A stretch of 63,953 nucleotides of DNA, filler included, from Porpidia crustulata (taxonomy: Eukaryota), in NCBI GenBank assembly GCA_964255105.1. It is 3 parts of 3 records of this genome, joined end to end, with 100 filler letters (N's around TTAATTAATTAA, not from the genome) between each part and the next. Parts side by side here need not be neighbours in the genome. Positions count along the whole stretch, not along the records: positions 43,871 to 63,953 come from CAXUWE010000127.1; 2 more parts are not named here. One strand, written 5' to 3'. Position numbers and translations under genes: made by a program. This document shows, piece after piece, positions 3,366 to 52,824 of the stretch. Under the pieces are notes generated by a model. It worked only from the letters and a program-made list of their open reading frames with translations. It made no database searches and was not told the origin of the DNA. Numbering within the stretch: the stretch's first letter is position 1; each line of letters starts with the position of its first letter.

Positions 3366-3703
3366 AAAGTGGTTTTGTAGTTTCCCTACAAGCTATTCTT
3401 TGCCAAAAGTCATTGCAGCACTTGAGTAACACTCTTTTTGAAAATGCTGTAATGACTTTTGGCATGCCCTGGTGCTGGGACTATAGAGATAGTCTTGATT
3501 CATTGAAAGCTATTCTAACGATATTTAAGATACATAGCATCACGAGTATCCTGTTGGTCTTAACCATAGGCTTGCAGATTTCTGATCAGGGAGCATCCGT
3601 GAATGATATATGTGCTCGTTAAATCGGAGGTAAATATCAAGTATTGAATAAGCTGATCGATGTTTGAAGAATAGAGAAACGGTCGATATTTCAACCCAGA
3701 GGA

Positions 3704-21852: not shown

Positions 21853-21952
21853 NNNNNNNNNNNNNNNNNNNNNNNNNNNNNNNNNNNNNNNNNNNNTTAA
21901 TTAATTAANNNNNNNNNNNNNNNNNNNNNNNNNNNNNNNNNNNNNNNNNNNN
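21853..21952. other. Artificial contig linker / assembly gap
   Basis: N44-TTAATTAATTAA-N44, with stops in all six frames. Confidence 0.98.
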
Positions 21953-22046
21953 GTGAGTGGGTGTGGGATGAGATTTGGTGTGAGGTTGGGTGTGAGGCTG
22001 AAGATGGGGTTGGGTGTGAAGTTGGGTGTGAGGTTGGGTACGAGGT
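21953..22046. repeat. Degenerate 12-bp G/T-rich tandem repeat (GTGAGGTTGGGT) at the contig edge
   Basis: About 6 imperfect copies next to the gap. Confidence 0.75.
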
Positions 22047-22373
22047 CGAAGCTGGAGTTGTCGTCGACAAAGGTTCGAGGTCTGGTCCCTCCATACCGAG
22101 GACACAGGCAGCAGTCGGAAGGACAGTCGGTGAAAGAGACTGAAGGAGATGGGTAGGAGGCGTCACGGGCGGCGAAAGAACCCCTAGAGAGCGCGCCCTC
22201 CCACGGGCGAAATATCAACAGGTGCTTCTATCCATTATATACAATCAAAAACTTAAAGAGCAAATATTGACAAGCGCTTGTATGCACAAAACCGAAAATC
22301 GAGGGGATATAGAAGGCCGGATGATGTGCAATATCAAAGCAATTCCGAAAACGAAAAGGGAGACGGGAACGTT

Positions 22374-43770: not shown

Positions 43771-43870
43771 NNNNNNNNNNNNNNNNNNNNNNNNNNNNNN
43801 NNNNNNNNNNNNNNTTAATTAATTAANNNNNNNNNNNNNNNNNNNNNNNNNNNNNNNNNNNNNNNNNNNN
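43771..43870. other. Artificial contig linker / assembly gap
   Basis: Same N44-TTAATTAATTAA-N44 pattern; followed by G/T-rich low-complexity sequence at 43871-43927. Confidence 0.98.
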
Positions 43871-44668
43871 GGGTGTTGGGTTGTGGTTGTGGTTGGGGTT
43901 TGGAGTTGGGGTTTTGTTGGTTAGGGTAGATATATCTTTGATACCAGTGAAGAAAGATGAAGATTTATTGTACCCCCGATCGATGCGTCTTCTGGCTCGA
44001 CACGATAGCGCCCGAAGGCTATCTACCTGTAAATTTTGACAGATGTCGTCTTGAAGTCTTTGCAAAGGATGTCCACCGACTTAGGTACCTTTCAGAGTAT
44101 CCGTGGTTGGAAGTTTGGAATGTAGATATCTACGATATCTATAAATGAAGTCGAGCACCATAGGTGCAACATTATCAGAAATAACGCGTATTTTGAACAA
44201 TGATATTCTGCGTTTAATCGTGTATTTCGTACGTTGCGCGGTCAATTGCAAACTCATTTAGAAGGGTTCAATGTACAAAGGTTCATACGAAGAGAGTTCA
44301 CGAATTCGATCCATTCGCAGAAGCTTAGTCGTACTTGACACGTCTGAGGACTGAGACAGATAAAGATTGATTCGCAAAGAAGGCCGCTGCTGGGAACTCG
44401 GAGATGAAAGTGCAAGAAGTAGATTTGCAAATCATAATGTAAGAATACCAGATTCAAACATAATATACATGAGTTACTAGAAAACGCCCGCTAGCCCATA
44501 CGCTACTTCTCCGCGAGGTCTATCAATATCTCTGATAAAGATTTGGACGTACTCCGTACCATGCTCGTCTATCCGGTTTGTTCCCTTTATGTTGTACAGT
44601 CAACGATCAATTTCCTCCTATCGGCAGACAAGCTCCCCGGAGTCGAATGGTGATCCCTCGCAAAAGGT

Positions 44669-46622
44669 CTAGTATTTGGTATGGATACTATAGATCAAGC
44701 AGCCAGCCGTGATGTCTCCGCCACGCCCTTGGTTGGCACCTGAATCTCATTAGCGGAAAGTGGGAGGTCATTTAGAGCGAAGACTCACAGATCCTCCATG
44801 CGGTATAGAGGATATCATAACACTTGTGATTTGCCACAGGCTCGGCGAGATTGTACCCTCCGTTAGCGGTACATTTGTCTACGGAAGTGATCTTGATGTC
44901 ATAAACGTCGTCCTCATTGGAGTTTCCGGTGTAGTCGAATTCGACATCTATCGACCCGTGGGGGATAGATCTTATACCAGCCATCACCGTGTGTGCGTCA
45001 TTGACAGGGCCAGGGACAGTCCCGTTGGCATACTGGTCGCAAAAGAAGGTGACCGCCTTTTGAAGCTCACCTTCGTGGGCGTCTTTGACAGAACCCTTTG
45101 GCGCGGCGACACAGAATGGTCGGGAAGGAGGATCTACCGGGGCGACGGTATCTGAAGGCGTGGGTGTGGGGCTTGGGGTGGTAGGTGATGCAGCGTCCTC
45201 AGGCGGCGGGAAACAACCGGGGGGTGCATCACGTTTCGTCTTCGAGGGAGCCTTGGCGAAGTCCGTGTGGAGTTTCTGAATAGCTGAGTCTGCGTCTCCC
45301 ATGAATTTCCCGAAACCCGATGTTCTAAGAGAAGGGTCTAAGTCTGGGAATTCGAATAGAGGCGCAGAACGGTCTAATTTCCAGATTTTCTCCGTTTAGG
45401 TACCATAGCCTCCAATGGATCCATCAATTTGTGCGTCAAATGCCGTAAGCCGGTCTGGAAAAGGAACTTGATTGCCAATGCCTTGAATCCATTCTTTGAT
45501 GTTGACTGGATTTGCGTTGGGATTAGTGTACGACAAGTCACCAAACTTAGTCGTGATAGGTTTTGGGTCTGACAACTCCCCAGTGCAGAATTCAGTGTCG
45601 ACCCTGCGGGTTGTCAGATAAGCGAGCAAGAGAAATAATTTTACATACGCAAGATTGCCATTTTTTGTCGTATAGCATGCAAGATTATTGAAGAGATCAA
45701 AGAGATCGCCCTTAAACTTTGATTTGACCATTTTATAAATGGTATTGAACTCAGTCCGAGGCATAAAGGTCTGGTATAGCTTTGGGCTCTGATCCGGTAG
45801 GAGCGTTATAGTCGCAGTCTTCGCAAAGGATAAGACTAAGGAGCAGAAGCCGAGCATATCGTCGCTGACTTTGTCCTTATCCATGCCGTTTTTATTGGAC
45901 TGGAAATAATCCTTTGTCACGACCACAACAACACCGTTATTGAAATTAGTCACGTCGAGGATGTTTCGCTCCGATTGAACCGGGTCTTTTTGTTGTTCTT
46001 TCATAAGACTGTATAGCGCTTCAAGAGGCTTTGGCGTCGTGACCTGCGGCGCCCACGGCAACCCGTCTATTTTCGTTTTTCCGGCGGCCGCGAGTGTCGA
46101 GGGATTGCATTCGCTGTGCTCAATATCAACGGTAAGCCTTCCTGGCTTCGCCTACGGCATCCAATCGATCTGATATTGTCAGTAAGATAGGACAGAGAGT
46201 CGAGTCGATCCAGTACTTACAAGGTCCTGCGCAGCTGCTGCACCTGCTTTCGCAGCGTCACCACCTGGGCTCCCAACTTTGATGTTCTTACCTTCCAAAA
46301 TGTACTATGAGTTGACAATTCCCATACCAGCTCCAGTGTCAGCCGTCAGCCGCCAATTGTCGTGCTTGCGCCCATCGATGATCTTCTTCTTTGCCGCATT
46401 TGTATTGTCGGAGCTGCAGTCCCTGCTTACCCAATAGAACCCTGGACTTTCAAACTCAGCTCCGATACCTGCAGTTCCATCACTTGTGAGTCCATTATCG
46501 CTATCCTCCGACATCTGATCCTGGAACCATTGTTCGCATTTATCTGGTGCGAGACGCGGCTGGAGCGGTAGGAAGGCTGCAAAAGCAGTACTCAGAATAG
46601 ACATGTACAGGAGTGGATACAT
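44669..46622 (-). pseudogene. Pseudogene of a secreted protein with a Cys-containing C-terminal module
   Basis: Signal-peptide-like start MYPLLYMSILSTAFAA. One spliced frame continues through in-frame stops TAG 46305-46307, TAG 46152-46154 and TAA 45396-45398, then a Pro/Thr linker, and ends CANQGRGGDITAGCLIYSIHTKY*. Confidence 0.75.
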
Positions 46623-48548
46623 GGTAGGCAAGTCCTTCAATTGAATGGCAGGACAAATTGGCTGGGTGGAATGTATGGCAGATTTGATTGAGTTTTCAAG
46701 TAAAGACAAGGCAAGCATGCGGTTTATATATTTTTGAGACGATGATGCGTCACAGGAAGTTGCTCCAACAATCTTGCCTCGAGGCTGAGCTGAATTATGT
46801 GCATTGTATGTGGTTGTTGAGCCTCTTGAAATATATGTCCAGCTTTGTCGTATAATGCAACGACATAGCCCATAAGAGGATGCTCTAGCTCGTTCATGTG
46901 ATCCATTTTACTCTGGCCAGTGCTTGATGCCTTGGTAGACTCTATGGCGGTGATAAGAATTGGGGGTGGGGTACTCCTTGGTGGACAGTGGGAGGATTCA
47001 TGCTGTGTAGCAACTCATTCTCCGATCCCACAGAAGACGTGATTCTCGTCTGTTTCTCCCGTAATCTCACGTGTCTCGAGGCCTATGAGCTGATGTCTGT
47101 ACGCTCTATGCACTTATTAGGCCTTCTAAAACGCATGTCTTACTCCCTTGTATGATGCGTCGCCATAGCCCCCAAGAATATCACTGCCAGAATAAGGAAT
47201 GAGCAGGAGCAACGGAGCAGAGAGTAAGTTCATGAGCTCAACTTGCTAGGCTTTATTCTGGCACTGCGTTTCATCATACAAAATCAGGGCAGAATTGTGA
47301 GATCATTTTGTCCAAAGCTGCTCTGGTTAAATGTTTTGTTATACGAAAATCAAGGCCCGGGATGGTGAGAGTTGGAGCCAGGCGTTGAAGTGTGAGATCA
47401 TGAGTTGAGTGAATCGTAAGACGATTTCCTAGCACAGGTTCTCGGGATATCAGCATCATTGTTAGAAATTGATGTCAGCAGGCGCAAGGCTGTGGCGGGT
47501 GATATCCTAAGCATGTTTTGCGAGAGAATGGCGGCCTGCGTTATGTCTAGCTTGTTGGCCTCGAGACGTACCGGTCAATCCTTTGATAGCGGTAATGACG
47601 TTATGAGGATCCAGGAGTGTCTTGAATAAGACTACAGGGAGGGTTTTACCTCAATATCTTTACACGGCTCTCATCCGAGGTAGGTCCGCCCAAGTTATTT
47701 TTTATTTGAATAGGAGTTGGGCGTAAGTTGGGGAAGCTATGGCTGCGTACGTCTCGGACACATCTCAGCGACAGAAGCCAACATGGTCCTATCAAAACAA
47801 CGTGGCCGAGGCTGCGTCGACGACAGGTAGAGCTGGAAGTTGGATGCAAATCCATATGGATTCGACACGTGAGGGGTTTGAGAGCCTGGCATTGACCTAC
47901 AAGAAAGCGTTTGCACTATGCACCCCGTTCGTCGAGCACCACAACAAGCTCCGTTCGCATTTCCGAGACTTTACATACTACAATAGGCTGGATGACCCTT
48001 CTTATAACATCAAAACTGCGTTCGATCTAATCACACGTATCGCCGTCGAACCTGTTGTGGCACGGTACGTCCGACATGCCGACTTTAAAGTTAGTGATTT
48101 TCAGATGTATCGTACCTCTCTTCCTGGCGTTTCTGGCTGCCGAAATAGGTCTCATATCGCGTTATTCAGCAGGGAATTCGTATAGTGGAGAGTCACAAAC
48201 GTTTGCAAAGATCGAGCTACAGTCCAATAAGAGCATTGCTAAATGTGAGAATTACTCTAGGTTGACAGGCTCGCTAATAATGAGACAATACGTTCGATGC
48301 TCGCAGACGTCGAATGTGGTGGAGCTGTAGTCAGACTGTTTGCCGATTCTCCCGATCTAGCGGAAGCAGGTCTCAATTGGGAGGAGTTCTATGCCAAGAT
48401 CGAAGAGGACCTAGAACCCATTCGCTATTCGCAATATGCTGCCGCCTTTCTTTTAACGCTCTTACCCAATGTCGAGACGCTCACGCTACCAAAGTGGTGG
48501 AAGCCAGTCGAGGCAACAGACAAGCTCGTTAATGTCGTCGTTCGTAAG

Positions 48549-48875
48549 GTACGTCTTTTCGCTCTTTCAGAGAGACTTGAGTGCGTTAGAGATCCTTTTC
48601 AAGACATTTGTTTGCCTTGCATCTACTTTCCAGACGTTCGAAAACACTAGGTGACTACTATTTTGGTGCTCTATCCCCCTATGAACAGTTCTACTACAGC
48701 CCTAAAATGACATGTAAGTGCGTCTATTTGTCTTATCGAAGGCGTGAGACCGCGTTTGTGGATTATGTACCCACCTCAGATCCACTATTCAAGCGTTCAG
48801 GAATGCCCAATTTTTGCTCTACTCCTTGCTAATACGTCGCTTCGTAGTCCGCTAACGCTCTAAGTCGACGTACAG
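48549..48875 (+). mobile_element. Introner-like intron B containing a nested 134-nt intron (48714-48847)
   Basis: Ends homologous to intron C; terminal inverted repeat GTACGTC/GACGTAC; internal GTAAGT...GCTAAT...TAG unit. Confidence 0.6.
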
Positions 48876-49030
48876 ACCAAGAAGTCACACCTCCTTTACA
48901 ATAGGCCTAGCCTTGCCCAGACCACCAAACTCGGTCCTTCTGTCTCATTAGCATCGGGGCATAGATTTGATTTGAACTGGGCGAGCCCTTTCCTGGCTCT
49001 ACCGCACATGCGGTCTTTCTGCGGACATAG

Positions 49031-49204
49031 TTTCGTCATTTCGCTCTATGAGCGCGAGTGCTCGTGAAGAGCACCTTACAGCGTTTCTGGCTCGTTTGCT
49101 CGCCTCAACCCTGCAATACCACTGCTCAAAAGACATAGTTCCGCTTTCAATCGGTTTAAATTTAATCGCAAAGACCTCCGCTAACGCTCCGAAATGGTAT
49201 GTAG
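49031..49204 (+). mobile_element. Introner-like intron C (degenerate donor)
   Basis: 15/19 identity to the 5' end of intron B; identical TCCGCTAACGCTC ending 15 nt before the intron end; terminal stem TCATTTCG/CGAAATGG. Confidence 0.6.
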
Positions 49205-51224
49205 CTGCGTAGCTTCAGATGCCAGTCTCAAGAGCATCCCACCTAAGGCCCTAGATCACGGCATCGGCGAGACTTTGGAAGTAGTTCATTTCGTGTGCTG
49301 TAGTATCGACGAGGTCGCTATTGCCGACTTCCTCAGACATGCCTTACGCCTCAGGACTTTCATGTACTCTCACTCGACAAAGGACCATGGCGGCCCTCGG
49401 GACTGGGATCTCTGCAAATTCGTGACTGCCGTTGAGCGCGAGGTAGGGAGTCATCTTGCAGAGCTCTCTATCACCATTCACGAACTACACGGCTCGATCA
49501 AGCCTGGCAAGACATCGATGCGAGGCTATCAACGTCTACGACAGCCCGAATTTCCTATCGAAATCGCGATTTGTAATATTACTGCGGCTGCATGTCATGC
49601 ATTGGAGAACAAGGAGCCATCCATCCTCGACCTCATACCCGCGTCAGTCTCTCGACTAGCAATAGATTCGCAAGGAACGGATCATCATGGACAAGCTCTC
49701 GATGTCATATTCCGTGGATTTGCCGCTGAGAAGGCTTCTCAGTTGCCCGCACTCAAGGACATTCATCTCGTCTCTCCTACAACAACGGACGAGGCGTATA
49801 TGCATCGGTGTACAAGACTACTCGCAGAGATGAAGCAAGTGGGTGTAAATTTGCATTTGGAGCCATGGTCAGCCGCTGCTTCTATGGCATGGGATGGGGA
49901 ATGGTAGCGTTTGCACGTATAGCGCCCTTCTACTATTTTCTCTATTTTTTATGACCAAACGGCATTTGGCACCAGCGCTGATCTGGGTGTCTGGGTGTCT
50001 GGGTAGGATCGGCGCTCAAAATAAAGGCCTCAGGTGTCCGGTTCGTGGGATATACCGGAAACAACGACATTGAAAACTGAGTTACGCCACGTCCAACCCG
50101 CTGATGCGGAAACAAAGGTCGAGGCGGAAGCGCGTCGTTGTCAGACAAAATTTCCACTCACGGTCCAACTTCCTCACAATCCCATCCGAACAATCTTGCC
50201 CTCCTGACCCCTTTCCAAATTTCCTTGTCCTGAACAGCGGCGACAAAGACCAAAACACCTCTTGTACAAGACAAGGACTGTGTTGGGACCACATCACGCC
50301 CCGAGATATCGGACTCGCAGCCCAAATCAACGAACATGATGAAAGGTCACCTACACTGCCGCAGCAGCAGCCTTGTTGCCCCCATCCAAGGCAATTCCAG
50401 GCAATTTTTGCCGGGGTGTCGGGTAAGCCTGTCACCCGCAGGGCTTTCTTTGCGGTGAATCCTCCATCTTTCTTATCGCTGTCGGATATCCAACAGGTTC
50501 CGCAGCTCGTTTCGTCGTTGGCGATGCGCTGTGAGCTGGTGGCATGTGTCCTACAACCTTTCAGTTCACTTTGCCGTCAAAAGCGGCCCATTTGCGCCTT
50601 CCCCCCCCCAGCAGGCCCCCAGCAGGCCGCTGCATGTCATATGGATGGTCATCGCATACGTGTAAGGATCTCAGACGAAGAAAATGGATGGGCAGAAAGG
50701 CATATGTTCGGCTCAGTAGGATCGAGACACATAGGAATAATCTACCAGTGTCAAGCTTCGGACTGGGCATAATGGGACCAATGAGAAAACTTCCCTTCAT
50801 TTGGATAGGTGCCTGTTGGATGCTCTGAACAGAAAATGATGAAAGAGCGGTGAGCGCTACAGAATTGTCTTTCAGAATGCCTCAGCCTCGCTTATAGATT
50901 CGTTATGGAACTCCCGTCATTAGATTAGTCTCCTTTCCACTCACGATAGGTGAAAGTCTGTGAGATTTTCATAATCACATCAAGACGTATTTTTCATAGC
51001 TGGAAGCTTTGCCATTGACGTTGCTAGCTAATTAGGCGTATGCTGTCGCCTGTAGTCCATTGTTTAAAATCGAAATTCTAATTTAGTTCCTGATACTGTC
51101 TTTCAGGATAGATACGCCCTGTGATCGAATATAGGGAATCGTTTGCATTTGCCGGAAAAAAAGGGGCTTTTAGAAATACATAACTTGAAATAATTAAACC
51201 GAGAAAATCATCCAGCTCTCGTCC

Positions 51225-52824
51225 TCATGCCGATGAACTCATCACTAAAGAGCCACTGTTTCCAAGGAAGACAACTAGAACAGCCGAATAGGCTGCTGTC
51301 GCGGCGAAGACTTCTTGTCTTTTCGCTTTGGTGAATATTGAGCACAAGGCTGAGAAGGCGAGGGTGAAGAAGAATATAACCATAATCTGGAAGTAGGTGT
51401 TGCGATCGACTTCGGCTCTGTTCCTGGGCTGGAGTCTGAACAGCACGAAGATGGGAGTTAGCAGAAGGACAGACGCACAGATGGTGAGGATACTGCGCAG
51501 CAAGATATCAAGCCGGGCGGCGGATACAAGGGTAATGGGCTCCGCGCCGGAAACGATCCTCTGCTCGGAGGTGCGGAAGACTATCTGTACACCGAGGTAG
51601 TATTTAGCCGAGATGAATGGATGTAGACTTGTGATGTAGGTATCTGAACAAAACGCGTGTAGAGTGGATGCGACTGAGATGGGTGCATCTGAAAGAGAAG
51701 CCATCCGATATATCATACTTCATGGAAGGTACTCCCAACAGGAGGCTGCCAGGTGTGATGCAATGAGATTTCAATTCAATGAAAGTATAATTCGGGGGAC
51801 AGGGCTGAGGCTGGAGAAATGAAGCTGAAAAGCTGCAATAAAGCCGAAGGGAAAGACGACATACGATCGTGATCTTCCTAGATATCTTTAGGAGAGTATT
51901 TTCAAGGAACGCAATAAGCCATCCATGTTCCTGGTCATGCGCCACCGCTGCCAGATCCGGGCTCAGCCGTATCCAGTCCGACTCCTCTGCAGCCTGACTT
52001 CCTGTATTTGCAATGAAGGCTGATACACTACTTTGGTTTCTTTTGGTCGGCCTTTTCATCGCCTGGATCTTTTGCATGCGAAAGAGTGACTCGTCTAAGA
52101 GGTCAGAATGCGCTCTATGTTCACGTCTAGTTAACTCACCGTATTCTATCAGCTTTGCTTGAATCTTTGCGAGTAGCTCACGTCGTTCTATTTCATCAGG
52201 ACCTTCATTTTGCCGACGTGAAAACAGCCGCCTTGGTTCTTTGACGAATTCGTACTTATTAAGTGCGATGAGGTCTTCTTCGAGCTCGACCAGCTCATCT
52301 TGTAGGTATAGAAGAGAGCAATTCCGAAGCCAAGTGAACTTTCGGTATATTAGGAGATCAGGATCACAACCTTCGAATGCGGCGAGTTTGCCATAGCCAA
52401 CAGGATGTTGATCCACTTCGCTGGCCTTAGTACGGTTATGATCCGCTGGTGACCAAACTTACAGGTAGGGATGAGTGGCTCCACTTCATAGTTGTAGGTA
52501 AAGCCCTCAGTAGAGTCTCCCCAAGTCTCTTTCCGAAGGCTCAAAGCCCTCTTTAGCCGCTTGGAAATCGGTTCTCGTTTTACACCTGAAGCGCCAAGGA
52601 TCTCTTAGATAGCGCGGCAAGTCATCGCTTCTAGTTTGAACCTTACTTTCACGTACACTGCTCTCTTCACTATCCAAGGATGCCAGACGACTAGACGCAT
52701 GCCGAACACTAGTAGGGTCTTCGAAAGAGGGCGATGGTGGATGGTTCGGGAGCTGAGGACCAACGCCGGAAGAAGGGTCAACAGCTTCCGTGCGCAACGC
52801 AAAGCTTGGAATCGTTTGAGTCAT
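51225..52824 (-). CDS. DUF6594-like membrane protein (about 5 exons; 280-nt intron 51585-51864)
   Basis: HPVGYGKLAAF, IYRKFTWLRNCSLLYLQDELVELE, KLIEY-DE, and C-terminal TM helices ending AKRQEVFAATAAYSAVLVVFLG. Confidence 0.8.

Follow-up and report, generated by a model that had tools for sequence, protein, structure and literature searches.

Intron B of an F-box-like gene of Porpidia crustulata, located in the 63,953-nucleotide stretch of DNA analysed here (the window), seems to hold a complete intron of 134 nt within its own 327 nt, which raises the question of whether one intron was inserted into another, as a preliminary description had proposed, or whether the compound arose in some other way. 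The gene lies on the + strand, and its last exon matches 21 homologs among 1015 candidates, mostly of 480-500 aa; we call it F-box-like because the named homologs (3/21) are all F-box domain proteins. A Pfam search with the three open frames of the gene returned no domain, an Rfam search of positions 47500-50200 no match, and a search of the own genome for paralogs only the gene itself. Its parts are as follows.

47871..48089, + strand: remainder of exon 1, placed by tblastn with the homologs
48090..48260, + strand: intron A, 171 nt, gained, with a near-terminal stem; branch CTAAA here, CTAAC in 12/12 orthologs
48261..48548, + strand: exon 2, with AAG at its 3' end
48549..48875, + strand: intron B, 327 nt, almost certainly a head-to-tail dimer; a 7-bp stem joins its outer ends, and the frame is restored when it is removed in one step
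48876..49030, + strand: exon 3, starting ACC AAG, with an in-frame AAG 6 nt in and, in the orthologs, a CAG 9 nt in
49031..49204, + strand: intron C, 174 nt, a single family copy; donor TT here, GT in 12/12 orthologs
49205..49907, + strand: exon 4 through the stop codon

A scan of metagenome contigs gave 12 confirmed orthologous loci from 152 candidates. They fall into five lineages (L011-L016, L017, L018, L019 and L020-L022), making six with the window allele, and are 80-88% identical to the window; the flanks match too in L011, L019 and L020, i.e. in three of the five lineages tested. Introns A, B and C are present in all 12, and so is the 134-nt segment inside B. Removing the three introns leaves open frames of 478-487 aa in 10 of the 12 orthologs, matching homologs of about 489 aa that are contiguous across all three inserts in tblastn. 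Empty sites occur in DNA contigs: AAG|GCC at B in a contig of run X2, and TAG|CTG at C in a contig of run X4, in which A and B are both skipped. Because the homologs are contiguous and such empty sites exist, A, B and C are gained introns. Run X1 is nearly identical to the entire window and could be the source of this DNA, so it was given no weight as independent support. The ordinary introns seen here are short, with examples of 47-49 nt. The window belongs to a filamentous ascomycete, placed only roughly by its Nup120, whose nearest named matches are from lichen-forming Lecanoromycetes (56-57% identity). The window's upstream genes (44402-47288) sit downstream of the F-box-like gene in L019 (4029-6662), and the local order therefore varies among lineages.

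The signals of the inner unit are listed here with their counterparts in the orthologs.

48714..48719, + strand: inner donor GTAAGT, made by a private A>G at 48714; GT in 0/12 orthologs, which have ATAAGT (8), CTAAGT (3) or a deletion (1)
48828..48833, + strand: inner branch GCTAAT, made by private changes 48828 T>G and 48829 T>C in a T-rich tract; orthologs have TTTACT (6), TTTAAT (2) or TTTCAT (4), and RCTRAY in 0/12
48845..48847, + strand: TAG, the inner acceptor, which is old (11/12 orthologs) and also stands at the matching place of the first half of B

Much of what the preliminary description had read off this allele is correct. The three signals are in place and delimit 134 nt, B without the unit measures 193 nt, and that remainder resembles intron C above chance (z 4.4, 0/300 shuffles); joining the outer donor to the inner acceptor breaks the frame, as claimed, and the unit is indeed no classical stwintron, since it ends 3 nt before the outer branch hexamer and splits no splice element. 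Intron C does have the 174 nt ascribed to it but begins with TT, not GT, in this allele, and the complementarity noted between the ends of the unit is within chance (terminal duplex p = 0.13; whole-unit fold z 0.07).

The origin proposed for the unit, insertion of an unrelated 134-nt intron into an introner copy at 48713/48714, is very improbable in the light of the orthologs. It would account for the consensus donor, branch and acceptor of the window allele and for the likeness of the remainder to C, which exceeds that of the second half of B (U2, below) to C in 2/6 lineages. Yet all 12 orthologs hold the segment with neither the donor (0/12) nor the branch (0/12), and the three signal-making bases are among 36 changes in B that are private to the window allele. 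A complete inner unit is found in 0/12 orthologs with an RCTRAY branch and in 1/12 with the looser DYTRAY (L017, which has a premature stop). The segment is, moreover, homologous to its host: it resembles the rest of B (z 3.4, 1/300 shuffles) and C (z 2.5, 5/300), and 130 of the 134 nt belong to a second family copy, of which they form the 5' portion; excision would leave two branch-plus-3' ends in a row. A search of the own genome for free copies, of limited sensitivity, returned self matches only. One of the two conditions under which the preliminary description held that its model would fail was that the other B-family copies all contain the segment; since all 12 contain it and lack its donor and branch, the comparative half of that test went against insertion.

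What, then, is intron B? We conclude with high confidence that it consists of two copies, head to tail, of a roughly 165-nt intron family from which intron C also came. The idea that B is a compound of two intron units, of one family with C, thus stood; the boundaries and the origin assigned to them did not. The two copies and their junction are as follows.

48549..48717, + strand: U1, first family copy, 169 nt, ending TAA where the family ends YAG
48693..48698, + strand: decayed U1 branch, ACTACA here and ACTAAC in 8/12 orthologs, in the same columns as the branches of U2 and C
48709..48723, + strand: U1/U2 junction, with majority state TATAA|GTACGT, one substitution from AG|GT
48718..48875, + strand: U2, the other family copy, 158 nt; alone it has all the parts of a canonical intron, with its branch at 48851-48856 and acceptor CAG

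Cut at 48717/48718, U1 measures 158-169 nt and U2 156-158 nt across the lineages. U1, U2 and C align end to end, nearly gapless in the 3' half, and the columns of the branch and of the 3' end coincide free of gaps; the U1 branch sits 24 nt upstream of the middle donor at 48718 (GTACGT in 11/12 orthologs, GTGCGT here) and is followed by a family-like 3' end stretch. In global alignment U1 matches U2 with z 3.7-9.4 across the six lineages. Once the ends that carry the splice signals are trimmed off, the values are 6.2, 6.5, 3.8, 3.0, 2.2 (window) and 0.9 (L020), that is, the similarity is weak in the window and absent in L020. A profile built from U1 only matches U2 over model positions 1-166, with E from 8e-7 (L011) to 2.9 (window), and one built from C only matches U2 with E 6e-6 to 0.12; reciprocally, a U2+C profile matches U1 from position 1, with the exact donor, in 6/6 lineages and reaches 165-167 in three. 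The best self-match lag of B, an alignment-free measure, is 158-159 nt in 5/6 lineages, strong in the window, L011 and L017 and tied or near background in L019 and L020. None of the 12 orthologs has a single copy at B. Pieces from run X3, of a relative, include the beginnings of B and C but not the U1/U2 junction.

Consensus identity is 62% between U1 and U2 and 55% for both U1-C and U2-C, which would put the age of the copies at roughly two to three times that of the divergence among the sampled lineages; because the copies are so old, the mechanism of insertion is not directly visible. GTACGTC opens each unit and its complement stands before the closing AG, giving a 7-bp terminal stem that is paired in 91% of 125 cells as against 8-55% in slid controls. 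Covariation in this stem did not exceed shuffles, nor did the overall folding of the introns, and a consensus fold of U1, U2 and C contained no predicted pairs; in a consensus fold of the six B introns the outer ends of B do pair. The terminal inverted repeats of the introns are 7-13 bp long, partly through G-U pairs only. A test for target-site duplications of the MITE type found short flank repeats (AG at B, TAG at C, GTT at A), all of which overlap splice signals. We rejected a MITE reading of an inner segment bounded by an 8-bp helix, since what remains after excision of that segment does not look like a family intron and a co-linear dimer accounts better for the sequence.

Near its ends, intron A forms a stem of 10 bp that is complete in this allele (p 0.002); the L011 version of A has a 14-nt exact word in common with C. 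A profile built from A only matches no other unit, and A was rejected as a sure member of the family; that it is a distant member is doubtful.

How such a dimer could be spliced turns on its junction. Since U2 and C end in YAG where U1 ends in TAA, a single G>A change from AG|GT explains the junction. Alternatively, U1 can be read as ending in AAG, with its G common to the U2 donor, which is the 5'-AGT overlap at one G that defines [D1,2]/[A2,3] stwintrons (PMC9024468, PMC5587772). The [D1,2] pattern G|GT..branch..HAG|TRWGY..branch..HAG occurs in 8/12 orthologs (L011-L017 and L019, with a weakened outer branch in L017). The corresponding two-step route, however, runs into a stop at residue 188-220 in 6/6 lineages tested, whereas one-step removal of the 327 nt yields 478-487 aa in the intact lineages. 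The [A2,3] type calls for a G straight after the distal acceptor, and in the window and all orthologs the first base of exon 3 is an A. Because the two-step frame fails and the one-step frame holds, B is a stwintron in geometry, yet does not function as one of the [D1,2] or [A2,3] type.

In L020-L022 the frame is intact, the middle donor perfect and the U1 branch absent; given this combination, one-step removal would be the only productive route in that lineage. Removing U2 first and then using the exon-3 AAG or CAG would cost only 2-3 codons. The majority junction forms a 6-bp hairpin (-6.2 kcal/mol), which in a fresh dimer would hide both middle splice sites; in the present lineages it is weaker in every one (-0.8 to -4.8 kcal/mol). 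A second branch-like hexamer (ACTGAC/ACTAAC; window 48707-48712) lies 6 nt before the end of U1 in L011-L016, L018 and L019, and it would suit a U2-first route to the exon-3 acceptors.

Together, these data suggest the following history. The homologs and orthologs show that an F-box-like gene, intronless until then, received the family at its B and C sites before the sampled six lineages diverged, and B is two copies of this roughly 165-nt introner-like family, arranged head to tail. The second copy may have landed exactly on the splice junction of the first, an AG|GT target, and the back-to-back introns could then have been spliced correctly in either order. A G>A change would next have turned the junction into AA|GT and so abolished the middle acceptor. 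From that point on, one-step removal from the outer donor to the outer acceptor would have been the productive route; it keeps the frame and may be helped by the 7-bp stem joining the outer ends of B. The U1 branch appears to have decayed later in 3/6 lineages (window, L018 and L020-L022). The 134-nt unit would be a late overlay in this allele, one transition having made a donor 4 nt before that of U2 and two changes a branch ahead of the old TAG. We regard this account of a dimer, a precise second insertion and one-step splicing as probably the best explanation of the locus. Precise second insertion followed by one-step splicing is likewise the mechanism that we favour, with reasonable confidence for the account as a whole and less for the insertion step taken singly.

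Two other origins of the dimer have to be weighed. B could be a [D1,2] stwintron core made elsewhere and inserted whole as 'misspliced' RNA, one G short, with U1 between G1 and T2 of the U2 donor and ending in AAG; the one-step product would then be in frame and the two-step product frameshifted. The sequence G|GTACGT..CTAAC..AAG|TACGT..CTAAC..CAG of L011-L017 and L019 does have the shared-G geometry described in PMC9024468, PMC12403724 proposes just such an RNA, lacking one G, as the mobile form, and the outer ends of B pair. This origin is nonetheless quite unlikely: it calls for an extra base in the 3' end of U1 (17 nt + AAG; U2 and C have 16 nt + YAG), for which a single transition suffices in the tandem model, no other dimer was found in the genome, and an insert that intron definition would splice into a frameshift should be hard to fix. 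The second possibility, DNA-level tandem duplication of a resident intron through the 2-nt AG at the exon end and the intron end, with a second copy that was never mobile, is unlikely as well. It would fit the closer similarity of U1 to U2 (62%) than to C (55%) and the AG that flanks both ends of B; but this 7-point gap is within sampling error for about 158 sites, both breakpoints would have to fall within about 3 nt of splice sites, and U1 and C have in common a 5' end and a segment of 10-14 nt that are absent from U2.

The favoured history, a precise second insertion spliced in one step, leaves the question of whether the late inner unit works in the window allele, the state of which bears on the answer. 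Two features mark the changed 5' end of the gene.

47856..47858, + strand: in-frame ATG in former upstream DNA, 15 nt before the deletion junction
47870..47871, + strand: junction of a 629-nt deletion relative to the ortholog L011, seen as a blastn jump from L011 position 1049 to 1679

The deletion takes out upstream DNA, the start codon and codons 1-20, which include an N-terminal F-box-like motif; the ATG is a possible substitute start. Because of this deletion and the GT>TT change in the donor of intron C, the allele is probably damaged, a young pseudogene. Loss of function is likely, not certain, since a weak GTTTCG donor one base before the C donor, used with an AG at 49212, would keep the frame. 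Rough dN/dS values from private changes are 0.46 for the window, 0.40-0.41 for the intact L019 and L020, and 0.22 for L011; the window value being like those of intact lineages, the gene was therefore constrained for most of the time in which its changes arose. Among the orthologs, L017 looks damaged (stop at residue 348, outer branch weakened) and so does L018 (frameshifting deletion in the last part of exon 2, middle donor lost); the F-box-like gene seems to decay repeatedly.

By its sequence, the inner unit makes B a stwintron sensu lato, a canonical intron within a canonical intron, in this allele only, and because the private donor and branch fit the consensus, the inside-out intermediate of the preliminary description could form here. 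The dimer may thus have acquired a working nested intron by point mutation in this lineage (stwintronisation), a reading that adds to the favoured history and does not replace it. The new branch would pair either middle donor (48714 or 48718) with the TAG at 48847 after decay of the U1 branch, and the inner piece would leave first, with the outer branch spared. Selection would have a motive: with the U1 branch lost, taking out U2 first would leave U1 stranded, and a new inner branch keeps the outer branch from being lost. In this allele alone, out of 13, is there a complete RCTRAY-type inner unit, and fungal intron definition is described as favouring the nearest sites (PMC7138796). When drift of the majority ancestor of B was simulated at the rate of this branch, a complete inner unit arose in 1.9% of runs for consensus motifs and in 0.065% of 20,000 runs for the strict motifs as seen, that is, at 1.9% or less per lineage; this low chance tells against plain drift and keeps selection for the inner unit possible, and the dN/dS of 0.46 points to constraint during most of the period. 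Against this stand the 5' deletion, dead C donor and weakened A branch of the allele, the fact that L020-L022 manage without such a unit, and the choice of a case picked earlier as striking, which together with the six lineages that could each have made one raises the odds of chance. On balance, a working nested intron is a real but minority possibility.

A still more inclusive reading takes B as the fossil of an intron that copied itself base-precisely onto its own junction, whereupon one substitution produced a shared-G core and three point mutations a nested repair; as a whole it is doubtful. If true, base-precise self-copying needs a splice-aware, RNA-level process such as reverse splicing or circular intron copying, and stwintrons would arise directly through self-insertion of one introner-like intron, in this case lacking one G and spliced in the reverse manner.

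The family behind the dimer is tiny. DNA searches of the own genome with B, C or the 134-nt unit returned self matches only and would miss diverged copies, and DNA and pattern searches found no other dimer. Genome-wide, a 5' pattern of the family had 8 matches (control 7) and a 3' pattern likewise 8 (control 12). One further member is probable: a 299-nt GT-AG intron in another gene (locus L024; G000:C2038:828-1126, + strand), which joins two frames in phase, has the 5' end typical of the family, keeps its 16-nt distance from branch to acceptor and contains a short motif in three repeats. Its 5' match was blind; the 3' pattern was written after this intron had been seen. A family profile run on 200 kb of the genome (0.9%) and five pattern loci gave one weak match in 25 sources, this same intron, and no member in the 200-kb sample. 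A third match of a 13-nt branch pattern proved to be an unrelated intron of about 47 nt, and the matches of looser patterns (L009, L025, L026, L029, L030 and L054-L058) showed no family match. B and C thus resemble introners in having been gained seamlessly at sites empty in homologs; introners also come in many near-identical copies, and the copies here are 55-62% alike.

Among known systems, the [D1,2] and [D1,2]/[A2,3] stwintrons of Pezizomycotina come closest, since there, as here, two U2 introns overlap at one G (PMC5587772, PMC9024468, PMC12403724). As described in these sources, they also have near-terminal repeats complementary as RNA, a long branch-acceptor spacer and several occurrences per gene. 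In described stwintrons, however, the one-step route is the frameshifting error (PMC12403724), whereas B, without the extra G, frameshifts in two steps and stays in frame in one, the reverse of theirs, and both halves of B are homologous copies of one family. We looked up four family motifs, without alignment, in the 288 Xylariales sister stwintrons of PMC12403724: two were absent from the portion covered, and the matches listed for the other two were otherwise unlike the B family. The stwintronisation described in Lipomyces (PMC7138796) likewise gave an inner intron that splits no splice element and was born of new sites inside an intron; intermediates were sequenced there, and the Lipomyces inner donor lies beside the outer donor, whereas the putative unit here lies near the outer branch and is private to one damaged allele.

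The introner-like elements reported from fungi (PMC4457414, PMC8469720, PMC9860276) are, like this family, long (160-175 nt here, against about 47 nt for ordinary introns), sequence-related, seamlessly gained and several per gene, and the empty AG|GC site of B fits the AG/GY preference cited in PMC8469720; as described, they differ in having many near-identical copies. Nested or merged introner elements of Micromonas (PMC3879977), a green alga, also place one introner copy inside or against another; the passages covered describe neither a tandem precise at the splice junction nor an analysis of frame. A further likeness is with recursive splicing at AG|GT ratchet points, the putative ancestral B junction AG|GT being a zero-length exon; such splicing is described from very long animal introns, whereas B measures 327 nt and none of the sampled lineages retains the acceptor G. 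Insertion into existing introns is anticipated in PMC12403724, and spliceosomal intron circles with reverse splicing are discussed as a route in PMC10996645. In the literature on introners and fungal tandem introns, searched mainly among freely available papers, we found no head-to-tail intron dimer of a single family, nor does one appear in the text available of PMC5647799 and PMC12130899.

The spread of fungal introner-like introns and the predominance of the [D1,2] type among fungal twin introns are open questions (PMC12403724, PMC9860276). A dimer of a single family, joined base-precisely head to tail, speaks for a mechanism that is splice-aware, and the shared-G stwintron core could be reached from it in a simple way; the argument comes from one old locus. 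Its six lineages form a natural series, with the middle branch kept, lost or replaced, that makes predictions on splice routes testable. The locus also carries a caution, namely that private drift can produce a flawless set of donor, branch and acceptor within a long intron.

Elsewhere in the window, the N-filled spacers at 21853-21953 and 43771-43870 join separate contigs (C95, C127 and one or more others), so that neighbourhood across them is not real; a short tandem array with a 12-nt period (21959-22054) adjoins the first of them. On the - strand, a DUF6594 domain is split across two overlapping frames (51225-52458). Finally, a 23-bp inverted repeat, 91% complementary and with an 18-nt loop, lies upstream of MCM6 (3401-3464).
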